DNA from: Candidatus Kaelpia imicola
GTDB taxonomy: Bacteria > Omnitrophota > Gorgyraeia > Kaelpiales > Kaelpiaceae
NCBI GenBank assembly: GCA_030765505.1
Contig: JAVCCL010000043.1
Coordinates: forward strand, 69,686-133,685
Length of the DNA stretch: 64,000 nt
Direction: 5' to 3'
The translations under genes and the position numbers were made by a program. Shown here in pieces: positions 31,641-51,431 of this stretch. The notes beneath the pieces are model-generated. The model had not been told where the DNA came from. It was given only the letters and a program-made list of their open reading frames with translations, and made no database searches. The stretch's first letter is position 1, and every line of letters starts with the position of its first letter.

Positions 31641-31757
31641 GCGGTTATTCTGCAGTTTCTCTATTTGAAAGTTCAGTTTTCGTATTTACTCCGCTGCAGT
31701 TTTCTGTTAACCTTTATCTGTATTTTGCAAGTTTTTCTAGCGATAATTAAACTTTAT

Positions 31758-31831: not shown

Positions 31832-31846
31832 TATGTTTTTTACACA

Positions 31847-32302: not shown

Positions 32303-32308
32303 ATAGAT

Positions 32309-34703: not shown

Positions 34704-34890
34704 TTTCTTCACTTTTTTTATTCTTTTAACAAAAGTTGCACTTTTCCCTCAATTTTTCCCGATTTTTTAATATTATTAAATAGATACTTGTTGTTTCTTC
34801 TTTTATTTCAATTAGTTAGAGATACTTGTTTTATCTTTTTTTTTGGCATGGAATTTGTTTAATACAAGGTGTGAACTAAGGAGGTATAAG

Positions 34891-35196: not shown

Positions 35197-35523
35197 ATGC
35201 ATAGTATAATATTTGCAAAACAGGCTCAGCCTAAGGCCGACAATAGAGAGGTCAGGGTTACGGAGAAAGTGTTTGAGGATGGGGTTTTGGTCTATTCTCG
35301 CAGGAGTAGTTCCTACAAGGTGCTTTTAAGCCACGAAGATAGAGAGCCTGTATATGAATATAGTTTTAAACCTCAAATGTATATCTATAAGAATATTCAG
35401 AACAAGAGAAAGTTTTTCAAATGGAAGATTGTTGGAGTGTTAAAAGTTCCTCATAGAGGTAATCAATATTCTCTTATATCCTATCAGCATTCTTTCTGGA
35501 TGTTAGTTAAAGATAAGTATTAA
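35197..35523 (+). CDS. Hypothetical small protein (108 aa), no recognisable family
   Basis: Starts 4 nt after the previous stop, so likely co-transcribed with it. Confidence 0.45.
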   Translation: MHSIIFAKQAQPKADNREVRVTEKVFEDGVLVYSRRSSSYKVLLSHEDREPVYEYSFKPQMYIYKNIQNKRKFFKWKIVGVLKVPHRGNQYSLISYQHSFWMLVKDKY

Positions 35524-35612: not shown

Positions 35613-36800
35613 ATGAAGAATAAAGATGTTGCCCGGTTATATTCTAAATATATTATGGATACATATACCCATCTTCCAATCTCTCTTGTAAAGGGAAGAG
35701 AGTCCAGGGTATGGGATTTAGAGCAGAATGAGTATTTGGATTTATTTCCAGGTTGGGGTGTCTCTATTTTGGGACATTCTCCTTCTAAGGTTGTCTCTCA
35801 TATTAGAAATCAAGCCGGTAAGATAATACATATATCTAACAATTACTACAACCACCTCCAGGCTAAGCTTGCTCAAAAAATAGTTAAAATAGCGCAGATC
35901 GACGCCAAAGTTTTTTTCTGCAATTCAGGAGCAGAGGCTAATGAAGGAGCCTTTAAACTGGCAAGGTTATACGGAGCAGGCAATAGATATAAAATAATTA
36001 CGATGAACGACTCTTTTCATGGCAGAACTCTAGCCTCTCTCTCTGCAACAGGGCAGGAAAAATACAAAAAAGATTTCGAGCCTCTACCCGAAGGTTTTAC
36101 CCATGTTCCTTTTAACGATTTTGAGGCTTTTCAGAGCAGTGTTGACAATGAAACTGTGGCGATTATGTTAGAGCTGGTTCAGGGTGAGGGCGGTATAAAT
36201 GTTGCCGATTACGACTATATCCAGAGAGTGAAAAAGTTTTGTAATGAGCGGGATATATTATTTATTGCTGATGAGGTTCAGACTGGAATGGGTAGGACCG
36301 GAAAATGGTTTGCATATCAGAATTTTGACATTGAGCCCGATATAGTTACTTTAGCAAAAGGTATTGGCGGAGGAGTTCCTATGGGTGCTGTTTTTGCCAA
36401 AGATAAGGTTGCTGATTGTATTAAGCCTGGAATGCATGCTTCTACTTTTGGCGGAAGCCCTATTGCATGTAAAGCGGCTTTAGCCGTTGTAGATACTATA
36501 ATGAGCAAGAAATTGCTCAATAATGTAACCGATATGAGTAAATATTTTAAAGGCAGGCTGCTGGATTTAAAAGAAAAGTATGATTTAATAGATAGTGTTA
36601 GAGGTTTAGGTCTCATGATAGGTGTGGAGGTTAAAGATAAAGGCAAGGAGATTTTTGAGGGCTGCCTTGCTAATAGGCTTTTAATTAATTTAACCCAGGG
36701 CAATATCTTAAGATTTTTGCCGGCGCTGAATATTAACAAAAAGGATATAGATAAAGCTATTATAATATTAGATGGAGTATTAAAAGAGGTGCAGAGATGA
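35613..36800 (+). CDS. argD: Acetylornithine aminotransferase (class III PLP aminotransferase)
   Basis: Class III aminotransferase motifs including GIGGGVPMGA and the PLP-lysine region. Adjacent to argF. Confidence 0.85.
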   Translation: MKNKDVARLYSKYIMDTYTHLPISLVKGRESRVWDLEQNEYLDLFPGWGVSILGHSPSKVVSHIRNQAGKIIHISNNYYNHLQAKLAQKIVKIAQIDAKVFFCNSGAEANEGAFKLARLYGAGNRYKIITMNDSFHGRTLASLSATGQEKYKKDFEPLPEGFTHVPFNDFEAFQSSVDNETVAIMLELVQGEGGINVADYDYIQRVKKFCNERDILFIADEVQTGMGRTGKWFAYQNFDIEPDIVTLAKGIGGGVPMGAVFAKDKVADCIKPGMHASTFGGSPIACKAALAVVDTIMSKKLLNNVTDMSKYFKGRLLDLKEKYDLIDSVRGLGLMIGVEVKDKGKEIFEGCLANRLLINLTQGNILRFLPALNINKKDIDKAIIILDGVLKEVQR

Positions 36801-37525
36801 ATCATTTTTTAAGCATTAATGATTTAAGCAGGAAAGATATAACAGGGTTTATCAATGCTGCAAAAAATCTTAAAAAGAAGAGAAGGCAGGAGAAGATACT
36901 TAAAGGCAAGAGTTTCGTTCTTTTATTTGATAAACCTTCTTTAAGAACAAAGGTTAGCTTTGAAGTCGCCATAGCTGAACTTGGAGGTAGCTATTCATAT
37001 TTAGGAGATGGTTCGGCTGGGTTCGGTAAGCGTGAATCTCTCAAAGATACGGCAGAGGTGCTTTCAAGGTATATCCATTGTTCTATTGTAAGAACTTTTA
37101 AACAGAAAGACCTTTTAAGGTTTGCACGGTTTTCTTCAGCTTCTGTCGTTAATGCTCTTACTGATACAGAGCATCCCTGCCAGATTTTAAGCGACCTTCT
37201 AACCATAACTGAAAAAGTTGGGAGCCTGGATAATTTTAAAATTGCTTTCATCGGTGATGGTAATAATGTCTGTAATTCACTTATACAGGCAGCAGCAGTT
37301 TTGAAGTTCAAACTGTCAATTGCAACACCTTCTGGTTATGAGCCTAAGAGAGAGAGCTATAGGGTTAAACTGGAAGATTTAAATAAGCAGAGCTTAAGAG
37401 TAGAGATAGTCAATTCACCTCAAGATGCGGTAAGAGATGCAGATTTTGTATACACAGATGTTTGGACCTCTATGGGTTGGGAAGAAGAGCAGTCAGATAG
37501 AAAAAAGATCTTTGAGTCCTATTAA
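36797..37525 (+). CDS. argF: Ornithine carbamoyltransferase, interrupted by an in-frame TAA; homology continues in-frame to 37711
   Basis: STRTKVSFE-type motif PSLRTKVSFE. After the TAA at 37523-37525, the same frame encodes ...[21 protein letters not shown]...[16 protein letters not shown], the conserved OTC C-terminus. Confidence 0.8.
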   Translation: MNHFLSINDLSRKDITGFINAAKNLKKKRRQEKILKGKSFVLLFDKPSLRTKVSFEVAIAELGGSYSYLGDGSAGFGKRESLKDTAEVLSRYIHCSIVRTFKQKDLLRFARFSSASVVNALTDTEHPCQILSDLLTITEKVGSLDNFKIAFIGDGNNVCNSLIQAAAVLKFKLSIATPSGYEPKRESYRVKLEDLNKQSLRVEIVNSPQDAVRDADFVYTDVWTSMGWEEEQSDRKKIFESY

Positions 37526-37721
37526 ATTAATAAGGATTTACTTAAAAACGCAGGGAAGAGATGCTACGTGATGCATTGCCTGCCTGCGCATAGAGGAGAG
37601 GAGATAACAGATGATCTTATCGACTCTGAGAACTCTATAGTATTTGACCAAGCTGAAAACAGACTCCATATGCATAAAGCTATTTTAATTAAGCTTTTAT
37701 CTAAAAGGTAGATTTTCTTTA

Positions 37722-39305
37722 ATGTCCAGGAAAACAGTTTTTTTGATACTTCTTCTTATAGTCGTATTTCATCTCTTAAACAATTTTATTATTCTCACAA
37801 TAGATGATACTCCTCCAGTAGGACACTATGGGCTCTATTTTTCACATAGCCTGTATCTCTTTGAACAGTTTAAAAATCTTTCGCCTGGATTTATAACTGA
37901 GCTGTTTAACGTTAATAGTATATATCCCCCTCTGCTCTATTTAACGCCCATACCTCTCTATTATATTTTTAGCATAGATTATGATGTTGCTTCTTTTTCA
38001 GTCGGACTGCTCTATCTTTCTGTATTTATATTCTCTCTATATTTTCTAGCAACCTACCTCTTTAAACCTTCTGTAGGGATTGTAGCTGCTCTTATCGGTT
38101 CTCTCTTTGCGGCAGTCTTTGGCTATGCCAGGCTATTTCTAATGGCATTTCCAATGGTTGCCATTTTGACATTGAATATCTATCTTATGTTTAAGACCGA
38201 AGTGTTTAAGAAGAGGCTATATGTAGTACTCTTTGCTTCTGTTTTAGCTTTAGGGATGCTGATGAAGAAATTTTACTTTATCTATATCTCTTTTTTTACA
38301 TTAATCTATCTGATTGAAAACAGAAAATTGATATCTAAAGAGCGGTTCAAGGTTTTTTTAAATATTTTTATTGCAGCTGGTATTGTTATATCTATTTCCG
38401 GGTATTGGTATCTTCGCAACATTGAACCCATTTTGTTCCAGCTTAAAAGTGACCAGCCTACAATATTTTATAATGAAGGCTATAGTTTTAATTTTTTAAT
38501 TTATTTAAAGTATTTGATTAGATATCAATTAGGTTGGTTCTTATTCTCTCTTTTTTTAATATCTTTTATCTATCTTGTTATCAAAAAGAGGTCCGCGCTT
38601 TTTCTATCAGCTTGGGTTATATGGCCCTACCTTATCTCTTCTCTTTTTATTGTTGAGAAGAGTTCCCGCTATACAATGGCCATGCTGCCTGCGATTGCTA
38701 TCATAATTGCTAATGGAATAATGGGATTTTCAGATAACCTGAAGCTTAAAAGAAGGCCTGCTTTAAGGTGCTCTCTTATGTTTTTAATTTTAGCTGTTCC
38801 GGTGTTTAATTTTTTTAAGACCTCTTATGGCGGGGGAGTAGAAGTGTTCAATTATAGGGATGAGACAGATAGGTTCTTTTATACCGGATTATTAAGGTCT
38901 AAGAAGATTGGTTGGGATATTGAAGATTTAGAAAAAACCTTAATTCAAGATGGTAAAAATAAAATCATGATAGATGGGTTCGGCTACTGGTATCTTTTAA
39001 ATGACTACTTGAATAACTTTATTGAAAATAACAATCTCTCTATCAGCTTTATTCATTTGGAGTTTGACGAAAGAGATAAAGATTATAGAAAGCTTATAGA
39101 GGAAGGGGATTTTATTATTTTAAGATCCGATGACGGGTCTTCTATTCCCAATATCAGCCTACCTTTTGAAAATGAAAACTTAGAGAAGATCCGTTCTCTT
39201 CTGGTTATATTTAATGAATATAAAGAGAAGTTTGAATTAATCAATAGGGTTACCATAGAAGGTAGGTTTACGGAGAGAACGCTGTTGATTTATAAGAGAA
39301 TATAG
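37722..39305 (+). CDS. GT-C-like polytopic membrane protein (PMT_2/ArnT-like), paralog 2, with C-terminal soluble domain
   Basis: N-terminal TM helix followed by TIDDTPPVGHY, then about 11 further TM helices and a ~150-aa C-terminal domain. Confidence 0.45.
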   Translation: MSRKTVFLILLLIVVFHLLNNFIILTIDDTPPVGHYGLYFSHSLYLFEQFKNLSPGFITELFNVNSIYPPLLYLTPIPLYYIFSIDYDVASFSVGLLYLSVFIFSLYFLATYLFKPSVGIVAALIGSLFAAVFGYARLFLMAFPMVAILTLNIYLMFKTEVFKKRLYVVLFASVLALGMLMKKFYFIYISFFTLIYLIENRKLISKERFKVFLNIFIAAGIVISISGYWYLRNIEPILFQLKSDQPTIFYNEGYSFNFLIYLKYLIRYQLGWFLFSLFLISFIYLVIKKRSALFLSAWVIWPYLISSLFIVEKSSRYTMAMLPAIAIIIANGIMGFSDNLKLKRRPALRCSLMFLILAVPVFNFFKTSYGGGVEVFNYRDETDRFFYTGLLRSKKIGWDIEDLEKTLIQDGKNKIMIDGFGYWYLLNDYLNNFIENNNLSISFIHLEFDERDKDYRKLIEEGDFIILRSDDGSSIPNISLPFENENLEKIRSLLVIFNEYKEKFELINRVTIEGRFTERTLLIYKRI

Positions 39306-41240
39306 ATGAAAACAAAAGAGAGAGTTCTGCTCTATTTTCTATTATTAATCTTAGTTTTAACAAAGCTGCAGTATTTATTTAAAGCGGGATTGTTATTTGA
39401 TACCTGGGAGATGTGCAATCTATTTATTGCAAATACAATAGTAAAACATCGGATATTTTTGCCCTCATTTTTTCATCTCTCTGTACCTTATGCAGGCGGC
39501 GGAGACTATCTGTATAGTCTTCTCTCTGCTCCTTTTGTCTATCTGTTTGGCAGCAACATTTTTTCAATTCGGATATTAACTATCTTTCTTAACATGGTTG
39601 AACTTAGCCTTCTTTTTTACATTGTAAATAGGTATTGGAGCTGGAGGGAGGCTCTTGGAGCTTCTTTATTATTCATATTTTGTTCTAAGTATATTTTTAT
39701 CTATTCTATTGTCGGTATGGGACGGCATTTTCATTTAGGTCTATTCTTTTTATTATCGCTGTTTTTCTACCTTAGATTTAAAGAGAAAAAGGGGTATCTC
39801 TCTGCTGTTCTATTTGGTCTCAGCATGGGTATTGGTAATTATTTCTATCCGGCTTTTGCAGTATTTATCTCTATTTTTATACTTTTTTTTCTGCTGAGCA
39901 TTGACTGGAAGAGAGTATCAGATTATCTTAAGATCTTCATTGTGCTTTCCTCTACGATACTATCAGGTCTCTTTTACAAAGTTGTTTTTTTAGATTTTAA
40001 CATTGCCTACACTTTTAAAAGTACTTTTATGCTCTCTACCCATTCCCCTAAGGCAATATTCCCGATAGATAATATTTTTATTATTGTAAAAAGGTTTATC
40101 TTATTCCTGTTTTTTCTGGTTCCGGATTTTTTATCTTTTAATCTTTTTCACACTGGAGAATATTTTAACCTCTTTAGAGATATTGAGAGTCTATCTTTAG
40201 TAAAAGCTTTTCAAGAAATATTTAACCTCTATCAATCTAAGAGTAACTCTTTGGATATCTTTTATGCCGATCTATACCGGGTAATCTTTATTCTATTTTT
40301 TGCAATTATTATTTCTTATATTCTTAAAAGAGCAAAAAACTTTAAGCAGTTTGTGATTGGAGAGAGAGGAAGAGATAAGAAAGCATTGAAAAACTCTATT
40401 ACAGCATTGCTCTCTGTAACAATATTGGTCTATTTTTTCTTATATATCTTAAATGGCCGCTCTATCACTACTTATAAATATTATCTACCGTTATTTATAC
40501 CGATTATTCTTGCTCTAACTATAGTTACTGCATGGAAAAAAAGTTTTTTCTTGCCGTTATTAATTATTTTGCTGATTCCCGGTTTTAACTTTCAGCTTCA
40601 AGCGTTAAAAACCTCTGATTCCAAAGGCAACCCTCTTATGCCGCTCTATTATGGCGACAAATCGACTTTAGAGTTTCTGGGCGATAGCAATAACTCAGAA
40701 CAAAAGAAACTTATAGAGCTAAATATAAATACAGCCCATACTCTGGGCTATATATTGGCTGATAGGAGTAAAGATTGCTCTGCATTGCGTCTGCTGGCTG
40801 GAGATATTTCTTTTTCAGATAAGGCTAGGCGTTTTTTCTGGGAAGGATGGTTTTCCAAGATGTTCTTAAATGAGAGCATAGATATTGATTATGTTAAAAA
40901 TTATCTCGCAGATTTAAAGAGAGAAGAGAGGTTTTTCGCTTTTTCCGGGATAGGCGAAGCTCTCATCCAGAATTCTATATATTGTCCGGATATATCTGAA
41001 TATTTTAAAAGTGCAGAGAGAGATATTTTAAAGATAACAACTATAGAGGAGAGAGTCTATTTTTATCAGGGTTTAGGCAGGGGCTTAGCTCGCTTATACG
41101 GTAGCGATGTCTATTCTGCAAAAGGGCCTTATATAGCTGATAAGAGGTTGTTCTATTCTTACCTTCAGATGGTAGATAGGGATAATATAACTGATTTTAT
41201 AAATGGGTTTTTACTTAAAGAGTTATGGCAGCCTTTATAG
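39306..41240 (+). CDS. GT-C-like polytopic membrane protein, paralog 3, with ~200-aa C-terminal soluble domain
   Basis: Many TM helices. Start is adjacent to the previous stop. C-terminal domain is of unknown function. Confidence 0.4.
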   Translation: MKTKERVLLYFLLLILVLTKLQYLFKAGLLFDTWEMCNLFIANTIVKHRIFLPSFFHLSVPYAGGGDYLYSLLSAPFVYLFGSNIFSIRILTIFLNMVELSLLFYIVNRYWSWREALGASLLFIFCSKYIFIYSIVGMGRHFHLGLFFLLSLFFYLRFKEKKGYLSAVLFGLSMGIGNYFYPAFAVFISIFILFFLLSIDWKRVSDYLKIFIVLSSTILSGLFYKVVFLDFNIAYTFKSTFMLSTHSPKAIFPIDNIFIIVKRFILFLFFLVPDFLSFNLFHTGEYFNLFRDIESLSLVKAFQEIFNLYQSKSNSLDIFYADLYRVIFILFFAIIISYILKRAKNFKQFVIGERGRDKKALKNSITALLSVTILVYFFLYILNGRSITTYKYYLPLFIPIILALTIVTAWKKSFFLPLLIILLIPGFNFQLQALKTSDSKGNPLMPLYYGDKSTLEFLGDSNNSEQKKLIELNINTAHTLGYILADRSKDCSALRLLAGDISFSDKARRFFWEGWFSKMFLNESIDIDYVKNYLADLKREERFFAFSGIGEALIQNSIYCPDISEYFKSAERDILKITTIEERVYFYQGLGRGLARLYGSDVYSAKGPYIADKRLFYSYLQMVDRDNITDFINGFLLKELWQPL

Positions 41241-41257
41241 ATTGGTGCTTAATTGTC

Positions 41258-41956
41258 CTATGATTTTCGAGCTCTAAAGATTGAGCTTACTCCAAAAGGT
41301 ATATTGAATCTCTTAGAAAAGGCTAAGTCCCATCTTATAAAAAAGAAGGAGAGATTGTTTAAAAAATCAGGTAGATTTATACAGTCATCCGTCTCTTTTT
41401 TTATATTTAATATTTTTTGAAATTTTCTGAATAGATATACAGCTAAAAATATTGTCCAGCCAAAAAGATCAACTTCTGTATTACTAAAGCCGGATTTGGA
41501 TAGTTTATCCAAGAGTTCTCTCTTTCTGTAGCGGCGGTAATGCTTGTTAAGCTTATCTTGCTGTCCCCAGAGGGTAGGCGACATGGGTAGAGAGCCGAAT
41601 AGAAGTCCGGATTTCTCTAAAACTCTGGATATCTCTTCTAAGGCTCTCTTGTCATCTTTTATATGCTCTAATACTTCAAAGGAGACTACAATTTTAAAGC
41701 TCTCTTTTTTAAACGGTAGATTGGTCAAATTCGCGATTACTCGATTCTCTATAGTGTTGTTATCCATTGTTTTTAAATCCAGGGCTATTATTTTTTTATA
41801 GTTTAAGGCTATATTTGAAAAATAACCGTTGCCGCAGCCTGCATCAAGTATCAATGTCTCTTCGGGCATCTTTAGTTTTTTGAGGGTTTTTAGTGCGGTC
41901 TCATACTTTATCTTTATCCACCAGTAGTTGTGGGTAAGCTTAAAATAGTTCAGCAT
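41258..41956 (-). CDS. Class I SAM-dependent methyltransferase (type 11-like)
   Basis: Motif I LDAGCGNGY and VVSFEVLEH. Last gene of the minus-strand operon. Confidence 0.7.
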   Translation of the reverse strand: MLNYFKLTHNYWWIKIKYETALKTLKKLKMPEETLILDAGCGNGYFSNIALNYKKIIALDLKTMDNNTIENRVIANLTNLPFKKESFKIVVSFEVLEHIKDDKRALEEISRVLEKSGLLFGSLPMSPTLWGQQDKLNKHYRRYRKRELLDKLSKSGFSNTEVDLFGWTIFLAVYLFRKFQKILNIKKETDDCINLPDFLNNLSFFFIRWDLAFSKRFNIPFGVSSIFRARKS

Positions 41957-42665
41957 CTTTTTTTATCCTGCGAGTAGATTTCCATATTCGGAATACCTCT
42001 CTAAGTGTTCTTGGAATATCCTGGATGCCTATCTTTGAATAATCTCCGAGTCTTGGAAAATGTTCTACGGATATCTCAGCGATAGAAAGATTGAATATTT
42101 TTGCTTTTGCCAATATCTCTGTATTTACAGAGAATCTTTTAGATTCAATAGTTATTTTATTAAAGATGTCTTTATGAAATAGTTTAAAAGCGCAGTCTAT
42201 GTCCTTCACATTAAGGTTGAATATGTATCGCATGAGCAGGTTATAGCCTTTTGAGAGCACTATTCTCAAAAGAGAGTCTTTTCTTATTTTACGATAGCCG
42301 ATTACTATATCATGGTTTCTAATGCTCGGTAGTAATAGTTCAAGGTTTTTTATGTCAAACTGCCTGTCGGAATCAGTAAAGAATATTGTATCATTACTGC
42401 AGTTTTTAAATCCTGTCGCTAACGATGCACCGTAACCTGTATTAGAGTTATGCTTGATAAGTTTTATTCTATCGTTATGAAGGCTCAATCTATGGGCTAT
42501 AGAGAAAGAGCTATCTTTACTCCCGTCATCTACTAGTATAATTTCATAGGATTGGAACTTTTGAACTAAATAATCGTTAATATCTGTTATGGCTCTCTCT
42601 ATATGATACTGTTCATTATAAAATGGCAGTACTACGCTTATTGAATGCCTGATTATTTTTTCCAT
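41940..42665 (-). CDS. GT2 glycosyltransferase (DPM1-like, no TM)
   Basis: VVLPFYNEQ, ILVDDGSKDSS and FTDSDRQFD (DxD) motifs. Confidence 0.8.
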   Translation of the reverse strand: MEKIIRHSISVVLPFYNEQYHIERAITDINDYLVQKFQSYEIILVDDGSKDSSFSIAHRLSLHNDRIKLIKHNSNTGYGASLATGFKNCSNDTIFFTDSDRQFDIKNLELLLPSIRNHDIVIGYRKIRKDSLLRIVLSKGYNLLMRYIFNLNVKDIDCAFKLFHKDIFNKITIESKRFSVNTEILAKAKIFNLSIAEISVEHFPRLGDYSKIGIQDIPRTLREVFRIWKSTRRIKKDAELF

Positions 42666-44302
42666 AGCAATAGGTGTGTTATTAAATTCTTTGAATCAGT
42701 GCTTGTTAGTCTTAGTTTAAGTACTTCCTCTCTCTCTATGTTATCGGAGAGTGAATAGAGCCTGCTCTCTTCTTCAGGCATGATTCTAAAGACCGATATT
42801 GACTCTTTGAAGCTTTTTGCATCCATTATTATCTGTTCTATATCTTTAGCTGTAAATATCAACCTATATTTGAGAGAGTGCTTATCGGCGTATATTTTAA
42901 GGTAGGCGCTTATTTCACTACATAGTTGATGGGATTTGCTCTCTCTAATAAACATATCTATTATCAATTTATCAGTTGAGTATATTTTGATCTGCTCTAT
43001 TATACTCTGAAAGATAATCTTATTATTATAATCCGGCGGTCTTACCTCATAATTGTATAACAGGGGATAGATATTACCTTTAGCGTCATAATAATCTCTA
43101 TCTTTGAAGAGTTTTGTTTTAAGAAGGGGTTTCTGCTTGATCTCTAGGAAAGAGGATGAAATATTCTGCGTTATCCCGAATAAAAACAATACCGAGATTG
43201 TTGTATTGCGTAATCCTTTTTTAAGTCCGGATATGAATATGGCCGATATTATGGCGCATATTGGGATATAGCCGATACTGTAACGCGCCCATTTTACATC
43301 TCCGGTTTGAAGGAAGAGATAGGGGATTAAAATAGCTAACCATAGATGTGTAAAATTTTGGTCTATTTTTTTTCGAAAGATTAGATTTATAGTGCCCGAG
43401 ATAAACACTAAGAAGAATGGTAATGATAGTTGATAATTTATAAGTGTAAAAAGATAGAAAAACCAGGAGTTTAAGCTGCCAGACGGTATCGTCTCTCCAC
43501 CTATTAGACCCTTTCTGCTGTAGCTCATAAGCAGGTATCTAATTATCTCTTTATAGTTTTTTACATAGTAGCCTATAGCAGGGGCTAAGGCGATAAAGAT
43601 TATTAGCGCTATATTTAAACATTTAGTCTTATTGGTAGATGTTGAGTTTTTATTCCAGTTAATTATTAGCTTAAAGAGTTCATAGATAATGCCTGGGACA
43701 ACAAATATCAAGAAGTGATATTTAGTTAATAGCCCCAAACAGAGAGATAGCCCCAGGAGTATTGAATATTTGGTGTTTGAGAAGTTCTGGCTTTTTATAA
43801 TCAGATAGATTATCAGGGGAACTAAAGCCAGGATAAGTGTCTCTAACATCGGATAGCGGGATATTCCGTAAGTTGCAGGATAGAGTGTCAGGATAATAAA
43901 GCTTATGCAGCCTGCAGACCTATTTTTAAGAACTGATGATATTTTATAGCTAAATAGAGCTGATATTAATACTATTACAGAGTTAACTGTTACTACTGTC
44001 ATATGATTTATTCTTCCCAGAATTAATCCTGTCAGGGAATGAATCAGAAAATAGAGTGAGGGATAAGAGCTATGGCCGTAGCTCAAGTAAAGAGAGTCTT
44101 TTAAGAATCCAATGTCGTGTTGTAAATTTATAAAAAGGTCTATTATGCTATTAAAATTATCTGAGCCCATACACATATAGCTAAAGTTGAAATTATAATG
44201 TTCCCAGAGTAGATTTATTGCTATAAAAAGTAATGCAGAGATAGACAGCAGGGTCATCAGCAGATGCTTGCTGTTTTTTTTATCTATCTTATTTATCGAC
44301 AT
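42653..44302 (-). CDS. GT-C fold membrane glycosyltransferase (PMT_2/ArnT-like), paralog 4
   Basis: Polytopic N-terminal two-thirds plus a C-terminal soluble domain. Overlaps its neighbours by 13-14 nt. Confidence 0.5.
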   Translation of the reverse strand: MSINKIDKKNSKHLLMTLLSISALLFIAINLLWEHYNFNFSYMCMGSDNFNSIIDLFINLQHDIGFLKDSLYLSYGHSSYPSLYFLIHSLTGLILGRINHMTVVTVNSVIVLISALFSYKISSVLKNRSAGCISFIILTLYPATYGISRYPMLETLILALVPLIIYLIIKSQNFSNTKYSILLGLSLCLGLLTKYHFLIFVVPGIIYELFKLIINWNKNSTSTNKTKCLNIALIIFIALAPAIGYYVKNYKEIIRYLLMSYSRKGLIGGETIPSGSLNSWFFYLFTLINYQLSLPFFLVFISGTINLIFRKKIDQNFTHLWLAILIPYLFLQTGDVKWARYSIGYIPICAIISAIFISGLKKGLRNTTISVLFLFGITQNISSSFLEIKQKPLLKTKLFKDRDYYDAKGNIYPLLYNYEVRPPDYNNKIIFQSIIEQIKIYSTDKLIIDMFIRESKSHQLCSEISAYLKIYADKHSLKYRLIFTAKDIEQIIMDAKSFKESISVFRIMPEEESRLYSLSDNIEREEVLKLRLTSTDSKNLITHLLLWKK

Positions 44303-45737
44303 TATCGTATCCGTATATATGGTAGTAAATCAGTAGATAGGCTATATTGAGACCGTTTTTAATCAGACCCTTGTAGATATAGATAGAGAGGTGAAGAAAA
44401 TATTTAAGGCCCTGTTTTCTAATCATAGATAGTAATCTTTTGCCGAAGGTTATAAAATAGGCCAGTTTCTGATAATGTTCAATCTCTTTAGGCGTAAGCT
44501 CTTTAGTGTATATAGCTGCTCCAAAGGTTATATTATTAGCCTTCTTCCATCTTCTCTTATCTATCTTACCCCCTAAAGAGTATATCTGTTCGATGCTTTC
44601 TCTTGTGAAAGGCTTATAGATAAAAAATGCAGAGCGTTCCGCCTTTATCTTATCAGCAAATCTTATAGTATCCTTTATTGTCTTTTTTGTCTCTCCCGGG
44701 CCGCCTAATATATAAAAAGCGGTTAATGCTATATTATATTCTTTGCAGAGTTTGGCTATCTCTGTAATTTTTTTATTGCTAACAGGTTTTTTGTAAATAT
44801 TACTTCGTATATACTCATTACCGGTTTCAATTCCGACTCTCAACAATGCACACCCGGACTTGGCGAGGATTTTGAGCCTATCCTCATCCAGGTTGTCTAT
44901 TCGGGCAAAAGAACTGAACTTTATCTCCTTAGCCAGCCCTAATTTACGGTAATTATAACAGAACTCTTCAAGCCAGGTCCGGTCTATTGTAAATACAGGG
45001 TCAAATAATTGCAGCAGCCTTAGATTGCGGTTTTTGTATTTGTTCCAGTGGTATAACATCTCTTGGGCATAATCTTTTGGATTGCGCATTCTGAAATAAT
45101 TTCCTCCCACTGCATCTGATATTCCATGAGCATCGCAATAGCTGCATCTGTAAGGACAGCCCCTGGAACCGATAATGTATAGCATGCCCAGAAAATAGAA
45201 GTATCTATCCAGGTCTTCCCAGAGATCCCAGTCGGGATAGGGGAGGGCGTCCAGATTCTCATTGAAGCTGCCGCCGCCGTTCCTTATGATCTGGTCTTCT
45301 CTCTTGAACCAGATACCTTCAGTATTATATGGTTCTTCGTTATCCCTGACTCTATTCAGATAGTTTAAAAGCGGTATCTCTCCATCTCCGATATAGACAG
45401 CATCGCATTCAGGAATGTTGATTGTCTCTTCAGGGTATATCGATGCGTGATGCCCTCCCACCATTATGGGTAGATTGTAATGTTCTTTAATCTCTTCCAT
45501 CACGGTCTTTACATACTGCATATACATCGTATTGCTTGAGAAGCCGATTAAGTCTGGCTTATGTTTTTCTATTTTTGTTTTTAAATATTCTCTCCAGTGT
45601 CTTTTGTGAAAAGTTAGATCTATTATTGAAGCTGAATGTTCTGATTTTTTGTTTACGTAACTAGCAAGATAAGTGATAGCTATATCCATAGCGCTATAGT
45701 CATTACCGAGAGTAGGATTTATAAAACTTATATGCAT
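44289..45737 (-). CDS. B12-binding domain / radical SAM protein (class B)
   Basis: N-terminal B12-binding Rossmann region followed by IIGSRGCPYRCSYCDAH (CxxxCxxC). Confidence 0.8.
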   Translation of the reverse strand: MHISFINPTLGNDYSAMDIAITYLASYVNKKSEHSASIIDLTFHKRHWREYLKTKIEKHKPDLIGFSSNTMYMQYVKTVMEEIKEHYNLPIMVGGHHASIYPEETINIPECDAVYIGDGEIPLLNYLNRVRDNEEPYNTEGIWFKREDQIIRNGGGSFNENLDALPYPDWDLWEDLDRYFYFLGMLYIIGSRGCPYRCSYCDAHGISDAVGGNYFRMRNPKDYAQEMLYHWNKYKNRNLRLLQLFDPVFTIDRTWLEEFCYNYRKLGLAKEIKFSSFARIDNLDEDRLKILAKSGCALLRVGIETGNEYIRSNIYKKPVSNKKITEIAKLCKEYNIALTAFYILGGPGETKKTIKDTIRFADKIKAERSAFFIYKPFTRESIEQIYSLGGKIDKRRWKKANNITFGAAIYTKELTPKEIEHYQKLAYFITFGKRLLSMIRKQGLKYFLHLSIYIYKGLIKNGLNIAYLLIYYHIYGYDNVDK

Positions 45738-45738
45738 T

Positions 45739-47121
45739 TTAAAAGAACCTCGCTATCTTATTTAAGAGTTTTTTTATTCCTCGGAGACTCCTGAAGTGTC
45801 TCATTAAGTAAGCCCAGTGACGCGGGTGAAGATAGAATAGAGTGACACCTGTTTTTTGGAGTAAGGATACAACAAGAGCATTATTATTCCCGTTTTGAAA
45901 TGATACCTTAGAATAGTAATCGAAATTACTGGAGGAGCCGAGTATTTTGAATATAGATAGTTTCTTCATTTTTTGATAAAGCAGCGTTCCGATAAAAGGA
46001 GTTGTTATCGAAAAGCTCGCTTCGGCAAGATTCAATTTTAAAGATAGGTTTATAGTCTTTAAGATCTCTTTTTTTGATTCATCCGGTGCGCCTATCATAA
46101 AGAAACCCGAGGGGTAGATCCTGCTCTTCCTGGTACTCTCTATGGTTTTGCCTACTCTCTTTAGCTCTATCCCTTTATTGTAGACCTGGTCTAATATTCT
46201 TTGAGACCCTGATTCAATCCCGTAATGTATTACTCTTAAGCCTGATTGATACATCTTATTGAGCAGCTCTTCATCAACAGTATCTATCCTGCTGTTGCAG
46301 CCCCAGAGTATATTCATCTTATTGTTTTGGATTATATCGCAGAATCTATTTATCCAATCTCTGTTTACGGGTAGGGTATCATCATGAAAAAAGAAATTTT
46401 CTATTCTAAAACTCTCTCTATAGTAATTTAGCTCTTTTATCAGATACTGAGGGCTTTTATAGCGTATACCGTCTCCGAATATCAATCGTAAGGTAGGTTG
46501 GCAGTAGCTGCAGTTGAATAAGCATCCTCTTGAGGCTATGACATTTAACCCTCTTTTAGCCGGATCCAAAGGGTCGAGGTAGTGCCATAGGTCGAAGTAT
46601 TGGTCAAGATTTTCAAGTAGATCCAGCGCTGGTATCTCTAAAGAGTCAAGCTCTATTTGTTTGCGTTCTTCCCGGCTTTTAAATATTGTTCTATCTCTCT
46701 TGAAATATATACTTGGAACACTATCTAAATCTCTTTGAGGCAGCCTCTCTATCAGCCGGTTCATGGTATCCTCTGCTTCACCTATGACTGCGATATCGAC
46801 AATATCTATTATGCTCTCCGGTGCTACTGTTACCTGGGGTCCGCCTGCAATGAGAATAGTGGTTTTAGGAAGCTCTCTTATCAGTTCCCGGACAGCTTTA
46901 TACATAACAGAGTCTATATATATGCCTATGGCTTGGGGTCTTATTCTGGATATCTCATTCTTTATTTTTTTAAAGGAGTTGTGAAAGGTACTATCCAGTA
47001 TGTTTATCTTTAGCTCTGGATGCTGTCTTTTTAGATAAGAGGCTATTGAGCATATTCCTAAAGGAGGGTCTCCGGATCTATATTTTAGACGCGGGAAGAT
47101 AAAAGTTAATGAATCTATCAT
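45739..47121 (-). CDS. B12-binding domain / radical SAM protein (class B)
   Basis: B12-binding region (ILIAGGPQVT...GEAE) followed by VIASRGCLFNCSYCQP (CxxxCxxC). Confidence 0.8.
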   Translation of the reverse strand: MIDSLTFIFPRLKYRSGDPPLGICSIASYLKRQHPELKINILDSTFHNSFKKIKNEISRIRPQAIGIYIDSVMYKAVRELIRELPKTTILIAGGPQVTVAPESIIDIVDIAVIGEAEDTMNRLIERLPQRDLDSVPSIYFKRDRTIFKSREERKQIELDSLEIPALDLLENLDQYFDLWHYLDPLDPAKRGLNVIASRGCLFNCSYCQPTLRLIFGDGIRYKSPQYLIKELNYYRESFRIENFFFHDDTLPVNRDWINRFCDIIQNNKMNILWGCNSRIDTVDEELLNKMYQSGLRVIHYGIESGSQRILDQVYNKGIELKRVGKTIESTRKSRIYPSGFFMIGAPDESKKEILKTINLSLKLNLAEASFSITTPFIGTLLYQKMKKLSIFKILGSSSNFDYYSKVSFQNGNNNALVVSLLQKTGVTLFYLHPRHWAYLMRHFRSLRGIKKLLNKIARFF

Positions 47122-47171
47122 TGATAGCCTTGTTGATTTTAAGTTATAAAGTTATCTAATGTGTATTGACT

Positions 47172-47180
47172 ATTATAGCA
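47172..47180 (-). promoter_or_regulatory. Extended -10 promoter element (TGcTATAAT) for the minus-strand rSAM/GT operon
   Basis: The reverse complement of 47172-47180 reads TGCTATAAT, 51 nt upstream of the rSAM start codon at 47121. No good -35 hexamer. Confidence 0.4.
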
Positions 47181-47236
47181 TCTCATTCTGTTTTGGACTA
47201 TAAAGCATAAAGTTTAGATGTTTTAGCATTCTATTA

Positions 47237-48451
47237 TCAAATATTATCATTTTTATTCCAAGGTGTCTTTTTAAATAAAAAGATTGAGATTTTTAATATC
47301 GGGTCGAATCTACAGTCAAATATTATTTGCTTGCTATAGAGCAACTCGTATCCAATGATGCCGGTTTTATCTAATGCCGATTCTTTACTGCTAAATATAA
47401 TGAAATCATTATCTGCTTCCAAAGCTTCTTGGTGGTCTTCAAAAAACATCACATTTCTAAATCCGCGTTCTGTTAAGAATATACGCAACCACTGCGAGTA
47501 GCCATCTTCTTCAATTAGGGCTATCTTTACAAAGTTACGATTAGAGTTATTGAGATGCAAAAGCAGACCATTGAATTTTAACAATCTTATAGGGTTGCCA
47601 TACCTTGTATGCTTTGGGATAAAATATTTAGAGATGTTATCAGGTTTCATCAGTTTTGAGTTTACGAAGAAGCTGAATTTGAAAAAATATAGCAAACCGA
47701 AATATAATGTTATTATCCAGATTAATATTTTTAATTTTCTCCATTTTAATTCAGTTACCCCGTATGCTGATATAATAGCTAGTGCTGGCATTATAGGAAT
47801 TATATAACGGTCTCTCTTGGTTGTAGCTATGCTCAGTATAATCATCGAAAGGATAATCCAGCTAAACAATATATGTCTCTCTTTCTGTTTTTTCTTCAGG
47901 AGATAGTATAGGCCTAAAGCGATTAATGAGATTGAATAATAAGAGAGAGATAGGTTGCCTAAAGTAGAGATATAAAAGAATATCGGTTGATTATCTTTAA
48001 GAGTTGATAGTTTTATCAAGTCTTTTATCCGGTATTCTAAAGGGTAATAATATATCAGTGCTATTAGGAGAGTAAATGCAAAACAGATTATGAGATTGTT
48101 TAAATTGTTTTTCTTCTGTCCTCTTATAGTGATATAGGCAAGGTAGATTAAAGGTCCTGATATAAAAACTAAAACACTCTGTTTTGTAAGCAACCCCAAC
48201 CCTAATATTATTCCGCAGATTATAGAGTTGTATCTTTTGGAGAAAAAATCACTCTCTATAAGCGCAAGTATCGAGCAGGTTACCATTGTTGTAGTTGGTA
48301 ATATTAAATTGTAGCTGCGGGAATAGAGGTAGATTGGGGGATAGAGGGATAATATTGCAGCAGCCATCAATCCTGTCTCTCTGTCTTTTAGGTGCTTTCC
48401 GATAGTATAGGTTGCTATGATAAGGAAGATAAGGAATAGAGAGTTTGTCAT
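47237..48451 (-). CDS. GT-C fold membrane glycosyltransferase, paralog 5; the reading frame continues upstream to an ATG at 48757 through a single in-frame TGA at 48665-48667
   Basis: An upstream in-frame segment encodes MLSRISGIKKQKYILLLLTIVLFHLSANII, then a stop, then INANTYPELAEEIGHIGG...YAMTNS. This gives a TM1 plus acidic/His loop N-terminus matching the other paralogs. Confidence 0.5.
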   Translation of the reverse strand: MTNSLFLIFLIIATYTIGKHLKDRETGLMAAAILSLYPPIYLYSRSYNLILPTTTMVTCSILALIESDFFSKRYNSIICGIILGLGLLTKQSVLVFISGPLIYLAYITIRGQKKNNLNNLIICFAFTLLIALIYYYPLEYRIKDLIKLSTLKDNQPIFFYISTLGNLSLSYYSISLIALGLYYLLKKKQKERHILFSWIILSMIILSIATTKRDRYIIPIMPALAIISAYGVTELKWRKLKILIWIITLYFGLLYFFKFSFFVNSKLMKPDNISKYFIPKHTRYGNPIRLLKFNGLLLHLNNSNRNFVKIALIEEDGYSQWLRIFLTERGFRNVMFFEDHQEALEADNDFIIFSSKESALDKTGIIGYELLYSKQIIFDCRFDPILKISIFLFKKTPWNKNDNI

Positions 48452-48868
48452 GGCGTAAGTTGTATATCTTAAGCCTGCAATCTGTATAAATGCGAATGAG
48501 ATAAGATAAAATAGATGCGGTTTTTCGGCTTTAGGGTTAGCAAAGGTTCTAAATATAGCAGTTGGACTATACTCTTTATCATATTTAAGATAGCTATAGA
48601 TACCGGTAATTCCTCCGATATGCCCTATCTCTTCTGCCAGTTCAGGGTAGGTATTAGCATTAATTCATATGATGTTTGCACTTAGATGGAATAGTACGAT
48701 TGTTAAGAGAAGTAATATATATTTCTGTTTTTTGATTCCGGAAATACGACTGAGCATTTTAACATTATATATGGTAGTATAATTACAGCATAGGAAAAAT
48801 ATTGTTTTTGGAATAGAAAAAAGGTTGCTTTTCGGGTATCATATTGTTTTAAATAATCGGAGGATATT

Positions 48869-50041
48869 ATGGCTAAAAAAATAGTTTTGGCGTATTCAGG
48901 AGGTCTTGATACATCTGTTGCTATTCCATGGTTAATAGATAAGGGGTATGAGGTAACTGCTTTTAGCGCCGATGTTGGCCAGGGAAAAAAGAGTTTCGAT
49001 TCTGTCCTTAGAAGAGCCAAAAAAGCAGGAGCCAAGAGAATTATTTTCAGGGATTTAAAGAAAGAGTTTATCGAGAACTATGCTTTTAGCGCCCTTAAGG
49101 CCGAAGCTCTATACGAGAACAGGTACTATCTGGCTACTGCTCTATCCAGGCCTCTTATTGCCAAGCACCTTGTAGATATTGCAAAGAGAGAGAAGGCTCA
49201 GGCCATAGCTCACGGTTGTACCGGCAAGGGCAATGATCAGGTTAGGTTTGAAGTTGCTGTAAAAATTTTGGCTCCAAAGATGGAGATAGTTGCTCCTTTA
49301 AGAATCTGGGAACTTAAAAGCAGGGAAGAGGAGATTGAATATGCGAAGCTGAAGAGAGTTCCAATAGAGGTTAAGGAGTCCACTTATAGCATTGACAGGA
49401 ACCTCTGGGGTTTAAGTATTGAGTGCGGAGTGCTTGAAGAGATAGATAAGGAGACGCCGGAGGATATATTTATGCTTACAAGTTCTCTGGATAAGACTCC
49501 TAAGAAAGCAGAATATATAGAGGTTGAGTTTAAAAAAGGAGTGCCCGTAGGTTTAAACTCCAAGAAGTTATCTGCAGTTGAGATAGTTAGTAAGCTTAAT
49601 AAGATAGCCGGCAGGCATGGTATAGGCAGGGCGGATATGGTGGAGAATAGGTTGATTGGAATAAAAAGCAGGGAGGTATATGAATCCCCTGCTGCTGCCG
49701 TACTATATTTTGCTCACAGAGAGCTGGAATCTCTGGTTTTAGATAGAGAGTTATCCCACTTTAAAAACTCTATCTCCAGTAAATATGCAGAGTTAATTTA
49801 TTACGGTCTCTGGTTTACACCTTTAAGAGAAGCATTGGACAGTTTTATTGATTTTACGCAGGGCTCTGTCAATGGAAAGATAAAGTTGAAATTGCATAAA
49901 GGCAATATTAAAGTTGCAGGAAGAGAGTCCAAGAATTCAAAATATAACTATAACATGGCTACATATACCGATAAAGATAAGTTTGAACATAAGGCGTCTG
50001 AGGGTTTTATAAAGATATGGTCTCAAGCCTATATGAGGTAA
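48869..50041 (+). CDS. argG: Argininosuccinate synthase
   Basis: PP-loop AYSGGLDTS and ArgG-type motifs. Confidence 0.9.
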   Translation: MAKKIVLAYSGGLDTSVAIPWLIDKGYEVTAFSADVGQGKKSFDSVLRRAKKAGAKRIIFRDLKKEFIENYAFSALKAEALYENRYYLATALSRPLIAKHLVDIAKREKAQAIAHGCTGKGNDQVRFEVAVKILAPKMEIVAPLRIWELKSREEEIEYAKLKRVPIEVKESTYSIDRNLWGLSIECGVLEEIDKETPEDIFMLTSSLDKTPKKAEYIEVEFKKGVPVGLNSKKLSAVEIVSKLNKIAGRHGIGRADMVENRLIGIKSREVYESPAAAVLYFAHRELESLVLDRELSHFKNSISSKYAELIYYGLWFTPLREALDSFIDFTQGSVNGKIKLKLHKGNIKVAGRESKNSKYNYNMATYTDKDKFEHKASEGFIKIWSQAYMR

Positions 50042-50045: not shown

Positions 50046-51431
50046 ATGAAAGAGAAATTATGGGGCGGAAGATTTAAAGATGGTCTGGATCCTGTTATTC
50101 TGGAGTTCACCAAGAGTATCAATTATGACTGGTTTCTATTTGAATATGAGGCTTATTCCAATATTGCCTGGGTAGGTGAGCTGCAGAGCCTTAAGCTGAT
50201 AACTCAGAGAGAGAAGAGCTCTATCAAAAAGGCTATAAAAGAGCTCTTAAAAGAGTATTCCGATGGAAAGATAGAGATAGATTTTAAAGAAGAGGATATA
50301 CACTCTCTCTTCTATTCTCTGCTAAGGAAAAAAGTCTCTTCTCTTGTAGATAAGATTCATGCCGGTAAGAGCAGGAATGAACAGGTTGTTACTGTTATGA
50401 GAATGTTTTTACTCGATGCTATATCTGAAGAGGTTGAACTTATCACTAAACTGCAAAAGGGTTTTCTGAGGAAAGCAAAGAAGTATAACGACTCAGCTAT
50501 TCCAGGATTTACTCATCTTCAATATGCTCAGCCTGTACTGTTTGGGCATTGGCTGCTGTCTTTCGTTGAGCAGCTAGAGAGAGATAAAAAAAGGTTAATC
50601 AATTGTCTTGACGGTGTAAGCCTGCTGCCTTTGGGCAGCGGTGCTCTTGCCGGCAGCAATTTTAAATTAAACAGAGATAAACTAAGAAGAGAGCTTGGAT
50701 TTAAAAGCTTGGGAAAAAACAGCATCGATATGGTTTCAGACAGAGACTTCATTTTGGAATATCTTAATGCTAATCTTACTCTTCTCCTACATTTGAGCAG
50801 ACTTGCAGAAGACCTGATAATATACAATAGCCCGGGATATGGGATAATATATTTCTCGGATAAGGTTACTACCGGTTCAAGCCTGATGCCGCAGAAGAAA
50901 AACCCTGATCCTGTAGAGCTTATCAGGTCTTATTCTTCCGGAGCCCTGGCGGCCTATGTATCTATGGCGGATATCTTAAAGGGGCTCCCAACATCCTATA
51001 ACCGCGATTTACAACTGGATAAGAAGGCGCTTTTCTCATCATATCTTTCGGCTACAGCTGTTTTAGATGCTACTGAGATAGTTATCTTAAATACATATTT
51101 GGATAGAGACAGGGCTTTAGAGCTGCTAAAAGATGAGAGGTTTTATTTGACAGATATTTCGGATGAACTTATTAAAGATGGCTTATCTCATAAAGAGGCT
51201 CATTGGCGGGTAGGTAGGCTTTTGAGGAAGGCGGAAGAGAGCAAGAGTAATATAGCGGATTTTAAGAGAGAGGAGTTGATTAAAATATTAGGTCGGGATA
51301 TAAAGATAGACAATTTTTTTAGTGTCAGTAAATCTCTAAAAAGAAAAAAGGTTGACTGCTCTACAAACTTTAAGTATTTTTTAAAGAGGTTAAAGGAGTG
51401 GGAGATATTATTAGAGTCTCCTGAGCTATAA
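50046..51431 (+). CDS. argH: Argininosuccinate lyase
   Basis: Fumarate-lyase family signature region GSSLMPQKKNPD. Confidence 0.9.
   Translation: MKEKLWGGRFKDGLDPVILEFTKSINYDWFLFEYEAYSNIAWVGELQSLKLITQREKSSIKKAIKELLKEYSDGKIEIDFKEEDIHSLFYSLLRKKVSSLVDKIHAGKSRNEQVVTVMRMFLLDAISEEVELITKLQKGFLRKAKKYNDSAIPGFTHLQYAQPVLFGHWLLSFVEQLERDKKRLINCLDGVSLLPLGSGALAGSNFKLNRDKLRRELGFKSLGKNSIDMVSDRDFILEYLNANLTLLLHLSRLAEDLIIYNSPGYGIIYFSDKVTTGSSLMPQKKNPDPVELIRSYSSGALAAYVSMADILKGLPTSYNRDLQLDKKALFSSYLSATAVLDATEIVILNTYLDRDRALELLKDERFYLTDISDELIKDGLSHKEAHWRVGRLLRKAEESKSNIADFKREELIKILGRDIKIDNFFSVSKSLKRKKVDCSTNFKYFLKRLKEWEILLESPEL

Follow-up and report, generated by a model that had tools for sequence, protein, structure and literature searches.

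A probable envelope-glycosylation locus shared by the Kaelpia clade separates argF from argG in Candidatus Kaelpia imicola

We analysed a 64,000-nucleotide stretch of the genome of Candidatus Kaelpia imicola (Omnitrophota; GenBank assembly GCA_030765505.1, contig JAVCCL010000043.1, positions 69,686 to 133,685), which is called the window below. The open reading frame (ORF) map of the window showed that eight genes at 37722-48757 (I1 to I8, Table 1) part argD-argF from argG-argH. The first-pass annotation of this DNA, made from the sequence alone, had described them as an island of eight genes whose function is unrelated to that of the flanking arg genes, two on the plus strand and six on the minus strand, and the ORF map agreed with this layout. 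According to Pfam, the island encodes four GT-C glycosyltransferases, one ArnC/DPMS-like GT2 glycosyltransferase, one methyltransferase and two radical S-adenosylmethionine (SAM) enzymes with a B12-binding domain. It is probably a chromosomal envelope-glycosylation locus that was inserted once between argF and argG in an ancestor of the Kaelpia-containing clade of Omnitrophota and has been variable since, with no connection to the in-frame stop codons now found in argF and I8. Candidatus Kaelpia imicola was described from Ace Lake, Antarctica (PMC8542988), and that paper does not discuss the locus that splits argF and argG.

Adjacency of argF and argG in Related Genomes

The ArgG scan, with one genome per species, gave 80 loci, of which 53, mostly from Omnitrophota, hold both argF and argG. 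In these 53 loci argF lies directly upstream of argG. The gap between them was at most 150 nt in 47 loci and only 8-50 nt in most genomes; in 4 loci it measured 150-600 nt, and in 2 it reached 1.8-2.4 kb. The split in K. imicola is therefore derived. The two genes are also adjacent outside the phylum, in a Bacillota metagenome-assembled genome (MAG; L053) and in Desulfurella (L072), so that adjacency is the ancestral state. The order argG-argH-lysA-dapF-dapA-dapB is kept in the relatives. These gene orders support the view that the eight genes are a derived insertion into a conserved argD-argF-argG-argH-lysA-dapF-dapA cluster. The claim of the first-pass annotation that an otherwise canonical arg cluster is interrupted was thus correct. 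The comparison of adjacency in related genomes that it had proposed gave a divided answer: argF and argG are adjacent across the rest of the sampled phylum, and the split is shared by the Kaelpia clade.

The two widest gaps (L003, 7273-9646; L010, 2039-3641) hold toxin-antitoxin-like pairs and other small accessory ORFs, which means that the space between argF and argG tolerates insertions. These independent insertions suggest that it is a generally permissive site. A metagenome scan with ArgF found no close relative; the best match was 59% identical and lay on a 2-kb contig.

Relatives Sharing the Insert

L163 (ENA ERZ27317826), from the sister species, is collinear with the window over 37.5-44.3 kb at 74% DNA identity. 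Its order is the argF tail, a 10-nt gap, I1 and I2, followed by the methyltransferase, GT2 and I5 genes on the opposite strand. Its proteins are 62-82% identical to those of the window (I1 orthologue 62%, I3 orthologue 76%). On the right side, L161 and L162 carry an I8 orthologue (~73-74% identical) divergent from argG, and their ArgG is 87% identical to that of the window. The closest match in the genome collection, L001, starts 40 nt before argG and is uninformative alone; L161 overlaps the start of L001 identically and links it to the I8 junction. The right junction is thus the same in the closest sequenced species. The sister I8 orthologue ends at residue 367, and the I8 of the window runs about 140 residues further. 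Both contigs, which are independent, stop 8-9 nt after the end of the I8 orthologue (L161, 2104-2114; L162, 1462-1473), perhaps because assembly broke at a point that is rearranged or varies among strains.

Parts of the block were also found in more distant relatives. In L164, L165 and L166 (ArgG 67-71% identical), the I7-I6 pair is divergent from argG-argH-lysA-dapF-dapA-dapB and a GT-C gene is convergent on I6. L170 holds both junctions on one 6-kb contig, with the argF tail, an I2-like GT-C gene, a 163-aa ORF, I6 and I7 on the opposite strand, and argG. In L168, argD-argF-GT-C-X is convergent with I6-I7, and V-ATPase genes lie on the far side. In L166, I2-like GT-C genes (32-34% identity) flank I6; in L168 and L170 they come after argF. 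Conservation across the locus is highest in the I7-I6 pair and, within the pair, in I6 (66-69% identity in L164-L166, L168 and L170; 57% in L167).

A neighbour-joining tree of ArgG and ArgH showed that the window, L001, L164, L165 and L166 form one clade with 100/100 bootstraps, and that this clade is basal among the sampled Omnitrophota. Since both junctions and the orientations recur in the sister species and in more distant relatives of this clade, the insertion is not recent. The monophyly of the island loci makes one insertion in the clade ancestor, followed by remodelling, the simplest reading. Of the relatively recent insertion or rearrangement that the first-pass annotation had suggested, the insertion was borne out and the recency was not. 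That annotation had also reasoned that the same arrangement in distant relatives, with a matching composition, would speak against its proposal. The composition does match that of the flanks, and moderately distant relatives share the arrangement, but the rest of the phylum does not.

The block as a whole was present in every clade member recovered, and its sub-blocks were patchy. The smallest insert in the clade comprises one GT-C gene, a small ORF and the radical SAM pair. L164 and L165 differ exactly in the argG|I7 spacer, with a DNA identity of 88-89% on either side; here L165 has an extra 3.45 kb (L164 9844-9874 vs L165 2752-6203) consisting of a further B12-domain radical SAM gene and an I8-like GT-C gene; no clear repeats were seen at the ends of this segment. 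The membrane glycosyltransferases show 62-74% identity, compared with 82-87% for the ArgG/ArgH flanks. We propose that the insertion would have taken place once, in the common ancestor of the Kaelpia-containing clade, and that GT-C, GT2, methyltransferase and radical SAM genes were later gained and lost at the fixed site. The oldest content may have been one or two GT-C genes co-directional with argF and a convergent radical SAM pair (I7-I6) divergent from argG. K. imicola would then carry five genes beyond this minimal form, namely I1, the methyltransferase-GT2-I5 block and I8.

Base Composition and Search for Mobile-Element Marks

The GC content of the island is 0.348, the lowest among the 11-kb segments of the window (range 0.348-0.399). 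Its tetranucleotide z-score (TETRA) correlation with the rest of the window was 0.75, inside the window range of 0.67-0.88, and its GC content at third codon positions (GC3) was 0.36 against 0.35. At four-fold-degenerate sites, the plus-strand genes of the window showed an AT3 skew of -0.34 and a GC3 skew of -0.06. The skews of I1 and I2 (AT3 -0.30, GC3 -0.11) were like those of the other plus-strand genes. The six minus-strand genes, read on their coding strand, showed an AT3 skew of +0.10 and a GC3 skew of -0.28. The latter values fit a replication-strand bias, with G and T enriched on the plus strand, that is already imprinted. A recent inversion of the six minus-strand genes was ruled out by these four-fold-site skews and by the same orientation in the relatives. 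Half of the island genes encode multi-pass membrane proteins and are T-rich, and the high raw tetranucleotide distance of the island is explainable by membrane-protein content and strand. Judged from base composition, the island appears native once these two factors are allowed for.

No integrase, recombinase or transposase domain was detected among the eight genes with Pfam and NCBIfam. The tRNA scan of the window found none near the island, the only tRNAs being at 31757 and 32309. No direct repeats or att sites spanning the junctions were found, and scans for direct repeats, inverted repeats and terminators gave nothing at the junctions or at the convergent ends of I2 and I3. The island contains neither arg-gene remnants nor DNA repeats shared with the rest of the window. 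The opposite strand, the GC and tetranucleotide composition, and a search for direct repeats or tRNA-like att sites had been offered by the first-pass annotation as signs or checks of a recent arrival. The minus-strand genes carry the strand-specific bias, the TETRA value and the skews are native, the GC content is the lowest and the raw distance slightly the highest, and the junctions yielded no att site.

In-Frame Stop Codons in argF and I8

The in-frame stops reported by the first-pass annotation are both present, one in each gene. The TAA of argF lies at 37523-37525, between positions 99 and 101 of the OTCace profile, and the OTCace_N and OTCace matches split exactly there. It stands for the Gln of a conserved Y/F-Q-[VI]-N motif, which reads FQVN in the sister L163 (Gln = CAG), FQIN in L003 and YQIN in L010. 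The 61 codons past the TAA are intact. The TGA of I8 lies at 48665-48667 on the minus strand, 30 codons past the ATG at 48757 and after the first transmembrane (TM) helix. It stands for Trp (TGG in the sister), the sister sequence being SNILWINTNTYP and that of the window SANII*INANTYP. The sequence on either side of both stops is intact and conserved. NCBI annotates I8 as a 439-aa product that begins at a non-canonical codon 67 residues further down, which masks the in-frame TGA. This annotated product would be without TM1 and the first periplasmic loop.

Each stop corresponds to a single C to T change on the plus strand (CAA to TAA; TGG to TGA on the minus strand). Under the standard strand-asymmetry model, this direction would match the bias behind the excess of G over C and of T over A in the window. 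The 55 genes of the window end in TAA (31), TAG (12) and TGA (12). In frame, TGA occurs once (TGG, 199 times) and TAA once (Gln codons, 394 times). Reassignment of the stop codons (TGA to Trp or Gly, TAA to Gln) was rejected on account of this single in-frame use and of the ordinary use of both codons as terminators. The first-pass annotation had taken the stops in both boundary genes as one sign of a relatively recent insertion or rearrangement. The sister species has Gln and Trp at these positions with identical junctions, and the stops are therefore not scars of the insertion. They are independent private changes and represent nonsense mutations of very recent origin or errors in the MAG consensus. 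If the nonsense codon of argF is real, the population would be an arginine auxotroph or a citrulline scavenger, and the codon would bear on the debated host dependence of Omnitrophota.

Assessment of Alternative Explanations

Several points weigh against one old insertion of a glycosylation locus. Neither a donor nor a mechanism (recombinase, repeats) was seen for the original insertion, and the raw tetranucleotide distance of the island is the highest in the window (0.165 vs at most 0.154 elsewhere). The contigs recovered from the sister do not cover the middle part (I6-I7), the sister I8 orthologue ends early at the contig end, and L163 and L161/L162 would belong to one genome, judging from sample and identity level. 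In L168, V-ATPase genes stand in place of argG, which points to later rearrangements and to at least one extra event beyond a single insertion. Each stop is about 200 nt away from the outer boundary of the island on its side. One junction gene per side is hit, for which a post hoc test gives a nominal chance of ~0.004; we treated this placement as a coincidence. I1 and I2 score under the Pfam cutoff, and the substrates, the identity of the sugar and the acceptors are entirely inferred.

A recent horizontal island or mobile element that entered the arg operon and damaged the boundary genes would account for an arg cluster broken only in this lineage, for six of the eight genes on the opposite strand, for the lowest GC content and the highest raw tetranucleotide distance in the window, and for stops in both junction genes. 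We consider this very unlikely, since relatives of one clade with ArgG identities of 67-87% keep both junctions and the orientation, and the stops are missing from the sister, in which the junctions are the same. Integrase, transposase, tRNA, direct repeat and arg remnant are also missing, and the third-position composition is native after strand correction. It is highly improbable, too, that the split is ancestral and that the other Omnitrophota fused argF and argG secondarily by deleting the island. The basal position of the island clade among the sampled Omnitrophota leaves parsimony within the phylum ambiguous, but argF is directly upstream of argG in the Bacillota MAG and in Desulfurella as well, and gaps as short as the 8-50 nt of most genomes are more in keeping with an old operon than with numerous clean deletions. 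A chimeric contig, with junctions produced by assembly, has almost no probability. The source is a MAG, and contigs of relatives often break near the junctions, as L001 does 40 nt before argG and L161 and L162 do within I8. However, assemblies made independently from other samples with other pipelines (JGI, ENA, Logan) show the left junction in L163, L168 and L170 and the right junction in L161, L162, L164, L165, L166 and L170, with both on one contig in L170.

An arrangement selected for a functional tie to arginine or ornithine metabolism is unlikely. Such a tie would have the GT-C genes co-transcribed with argD-argF and the radical SAM pair sharing the regulatory region of argG. It is favoured by the 10-nt argF-I1 spacing kept in the sister, by the GT-C gene that follows argF in L168 and L170 too, and by the conserved tandem motif in the divergent I8/argG spacer. 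However, ornithine carbamoyltransferase and argininosuccinate synthase have no known biochemical tie to GT-C or radical SAM enzymes, the right neighbour in L168 is a V-ATPase operon rather than argG, the same radical SAM pair occurs in polysaccharide clusters away from arg genes, and the toxin-antitoxin-like genes in the same gap of L003 and L010 indicate a merely permissive site. We also find it scarcely credible that the stops are read through, recoded (TGA as Trp, TAA as Gln) or programmed so that both genes remain functional. The stops do stand exactly for Trp and Gln, between frames that are intact and conserved, yet TAA (31) and TGA (12) are ordinary terminators among the 55 genes, and a stop takes the place of Trp at just 1 of 200 positions and of Gln at just 1 of 395. 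The window holds no suppressor tRNA, and two stop codons would need two separate reassignments.

The single old insertion with later remodelling shows that a block that splits an operon, lies on the opposite strand and is flanked by stops can mimic a fresh island and yet be old and slowly remodelled. As a clade-defining insertion, it can serve as a synteny marker for the Kaelpia lineage of Omnitrophota. The locus also records the modular gain and loss of GT-C and radical SAM cassettes at a fixed site in an uncultivated phylum with an unstudied cell surface.

Glycosyltransferases and Predicted Pathway

The locus likely serves the periplasmic transfer of a polyprenyl-phosphate-linked sugar, with radical SAM or methyl modification. 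In the proposed pathway, the soluble I4 would attach a sugar to polyprenyl phosphate on the cytoplasmic side. The product would then be flipped, and the four ArnT/PMT-like GT-C paralogues would pass its sugar to periplasmic acceptors (such as lipid, glycan or protein). The two radical SAM enzymes and the methyltransferase may modify the sugar or the lipid moiety.

The hydropathy scan showed 7-10 hydrophobic segments in each of the four GT-C proteins. I5 and I8 score above the PMT_2 gathering cutoff of 26.1 bits, and I1 and I2 score just below it (Table 1). I1 is paralogous to I8 (E 1.7e-16), and its NCBI name is glycosyltransferase family 39 protein. Acidic residues follow TM1 in each paralogue (ELAEE in I8, DD in I1, FDTWE in I2) but do not align to one column, as a conserved catalytic residue of the first extracytoplasmic loop would. 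Fold comparison by model covers I5 alone among the four paralogues. The AlphaFold 2 (AF2) model of I5 had a predicted local distance difference test (pLDDT) score of 61.6 as a whole; block means of the TM core were ~65-94, mostly 73-94, with a short dip near residue 260, and the C-terminal third is unreliable. With this model, 38 of 38 matches at a Foldseek probability of 1.00 were GT-C enzymes, with ArnT carrying bound undecaprenyl phosphate on top. The matched folds were ArnT, STT3/AglB/PglB, ALG9/12/3, Pmt1/2/4, AftA/B and Emb.

The top PDB sequence matches of I4 were ArnC (E 1.2e-17), dolichol-phosphate mannose synthase (DPMS; 1.1e-16) and GtrB (4.8e-9), enzymes that attach sugars to polyprenyl phosphate. 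Its best NCBIfam match was ArnC, with 74.5 bits against a cutoff of 529. The hydropathy scan found no hydrophobic or TM segment in I4, which is hence without the C-terminal helices of ArnC and GtrB. These matches suggest that I4 works like the ArnC/DPMS/GtrB branch and is not an ArnC orthologue. The relatives of I4 and the exclusive GT-C fold matches of I5 fit the known two-step scheme for polyprenyl-phosphate sugars.

In a 5.8-billion-protein database, I1 had 2 matches and I8 had 4. Six GT-C/PMT_2 paralogues with 17-30% mutual identity occur in the 64 kb (24939-26663, 37722-39305, 39306-41240, 42653-44302, 47237-48757 and 60981-62573), and the family is unusually dense and fast-diverging in this genome. 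The first-pass annotation had stated that the island repeats a module at 21360-29565. The domain families are indeed the same, and the segment is not a duplicate. A recent intragenomic duplication was ruled out by the identity of only 25-33%, and the likeness would reflect shared domain families and a functional theme. The GT2 paralogue in that module (22142-23080) has two C-terminal TM segments. In the 977-aa B12-domain radical SAM protein of the module (26632-29565), recognisable domains reach only to about residue 430, and Pfam matched nothing in the C-terminal ~540 residues.

The Twin Radical SAM Pair

I6 and I7 matched PF02310 and PF04055 above the cutoffs, and their CX3CX2C cysteines are invariant in 66 homologues. 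By sequence, they are nearest to HpnJ, BchE, ApyD and a family of the ladderane-lipid type, with all scores far below the NCBIfam equivalog cutoffs. More than 1,400 homologues of I7 were found. The AF2 model of I7 had a pLDDT of 93.9, and its best fold match was AprD4 (TM-score 0.75), followed by MgmA/QCMT, TsrM and OxsB; identity to any solved member is only 14-19%. AprD4 is a radical SAM diol dehydratase that acts on an aminoglycoside sugar. AprD4 has the B12-domain radical SAM architecture yet does not bind cobalamin (PMC12931638). Since it is the top structural match, I6 and I7 may or may not use cobalamin.

In L167, from a bacterium, the same radical SAM pair lies beside a PMT-type GT-C gene, a GT2 gene, an FAD amine-oxidase-like enzyme and nucleotide-sugar enzymes. 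In L171, a MAG of Nanoarchaeota (DPANN), it lies beside the same type of FAD enzyme and a methyltransferase. This context hints at a deeper conserved module that K. imicola holds only in part. The FAD amine-oxidase/CrtI-like gene directly precedes the I7-like/I6-like pair in both loci (L167, 6734-10809; L171, 2034-6754), and in L171 the methyltransferase gene lies between the two radical SAM genes.

Literature searches found no description of a cluster of B12-domain radical SAM and GT39/GT-C genes. We speculate, as a possibility that we hold tentatively, that the I7-I6 pair belongs to an uncharacterised pathway making a radical-modified (C-methylated, deoxygenated or cross-linked) polyprenyl-linked sugar or lipid for the envelope of ultra-small, possibly host-attached cells, and that the argF|argG locus is a diversifying surface-antigen hotspot. 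The twin module with its GT-C and GT2 genes is widespread, judging from the number of homologues, and has no characterised member; it is the only part of the locus of wider interest.

Transcription and the I8/argG Spacer

I1 starts 10 nt past the argF stop in both the window and the sister species. Because this gap is so short, I1 and I2 are probably read through from argD-argF. The intergenic gaps within the island do not exceed 116 nt. A gap of 17 nt separates the convergent I2 and I3, and it showed no terminator-like fold.

The 111-nt spacer between I8 and argG contains a -10-like box and a strong argG Shine-Dalgarno sequence, and it aligns with that of the sister species. Two tandem copies of ATAGnAAAAAnnnTGnTTTT (20 nt) lie at 48790-48809 and 48813-48832, with a 23-nt period, just upstream of the -10-like box of argG, and both are kept in the sister. 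No other copy with zero mismatches occurs in the window, and 5 matches with at most 2 mismatches were found against 1.3 expected. The tandem motif was sought upstream of argD and elsewhere and was not found. The argG gene would now have its own promoter in this divergent spacer, and the repeat may be the operator of a promoter that argG acquired once it was cut off from argF.

Gene Content and Neighbouring Features

The features of the locus, its flanks and the distant paralogous module are listed in Table 1.

Table 1. Features of the argF-argG locus of K. imicola and of the related module (positions in the window).
Feature	Position	Strand	Evidence and remarks
argD (acetylornithine aminotransferase), left flank	35613-36800	+	395-aa ORF; orthologues precede argF in >50 related loci
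argF (ornithine carbamoyltransferase), left flank	36797-37711	+	Pfam OTCace_N + OTCace; one in-frame TAA
I1, GT-C (GT39-like) membrane glycosyltransferase	37722-39305	+	PMT_2 24.2 bits; ~10 hydrophobic segments
I2, GT-C-like membrane protein, 644 aa, C-terminal soluble region	39306-41240	+	PMT_2 21.8 bits; ~10 hydrophobic segments
I3, class I SAM-dependent methyltransferase	41258-41956	-	Methyltransf_11 E 8.6e-17
I4, GT2 of the polyprenyl-phosphate glycosyltransferase type (ArnC/DPMS/GtrB-like), soluble	41940-42665	-	Glycos_transf_2 E 1.2e-27
I5, GT-C glycosyltransferase	42653-44302	-	PMT_2 38.6 bits and PMT 25.3 bits, both over cutoff
I6, B12-binding-domain radical SAM enzyme	44289-45737	-	B12-binding + Radical_SAM; CPYRCSYC motif
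I7, B12-binding-domain radical SAM enzyme	45739-47121	-	Pfam B12-binding + Radical_SAM; CLFNCSYC motif
I8, GT-C glycosyltransferase	47237-48757	-	PMT_2 30.3 bits; one in-frame TGA
Divergent I8/argG intergenic region	48758-48868	.	-10-like box, argG Shine-Dalgarno, two tandem ATAGnAAAAAnnnTGnTTTT copies
argG, right flank	48869-50041	+	ORF
argH, right flank	50046-51431	+	ORF; then lysA, dapF, dapA, dapB
Distant paralogous module: methyltransferase, GT2, AsnB, GT-C, 977-aa B12-domain radical SAM	21360-29565	+	Pfam; 25-33% identity to island

Two small ORFs, 34843-35193 (116 aa) and 35197-35523 (108 aa), lie in the same frame just upstream of argD, with a TAG and one codon between them. They are either two genes or one gene with a third in-frame stop. 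Neither had a Pfam match, and no counterpart was found upstream of argD in the relatives. Between tRNA-Arg(ACG) and tRNA-Ser(GCT) (window 31757-32400) lies a tadA-like deaminase gene (31805-32302). Its listed TTG start overlaps the 3' end of tRNA-Arg, the substrate of TadA.

Comparison with Known Systems

As a clade-specific, vertically inherited and still-evolving locus, the island is of a familiar kind, that of variable surface-polysaccharide loci. The O-antigen cluster between galF and gnd in Enterobacteriaceae is such a locus, lying between housekeeping genes. Like O-antigen-type loci, the K. imicola block occupies a fixed site between conserved flanks, differs in content among close relatives, and has fast-evolving membrane glycosyltransferases and no mobile-element genes. 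Unlike them, it lies inside a biosynthetic arg/dap operon and not between operons, and it has no Wzx/Wzy, ABC-transporter or nucleotide-sugar synthesis genes, GT-C and radical SAM genes being dominant instead. With classical integrative islands, which target tRNA genes or gene 3' ends and bear an integrase, the block shares the form of an accessory block that breaks a conserved synteny. It differs from them in having no integrase, tRNA, att repeats or foreign composition and in its vertical inheritance across the clade.

The ArnC/ArnT pathway (undecaprenyl-phosphate Ara4N) and the DPMS/PMT system resemble the island in that a GT2 enzyme is encoded beside a multi-pass GT-C protein. Their two-step logic, with a cytoplasmic polyprenyl-phosphate-sugar synthase and a periplasmic GT-C transferase, fits the island. 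In contrast to the ArnC/ArnT pathway, the island has no ArnA, ArnB, ArnD, ArnE or ArnF genes and no equivalog-level score, and it carries four GT-C paralogues instead of one, together with two B12-domain radical SAM enzymes and a methyltransferase. I6 and I7 share the N-terminal Rossmann-like B12-binding domain and the CX3CX2C barrel with class B (cobalamin-dependent) radical SAM enzymes and the AprD4 group. They differ from the characterised class B members in occurring as a conserved adjacent pair, an arrangement undescribed for those members.

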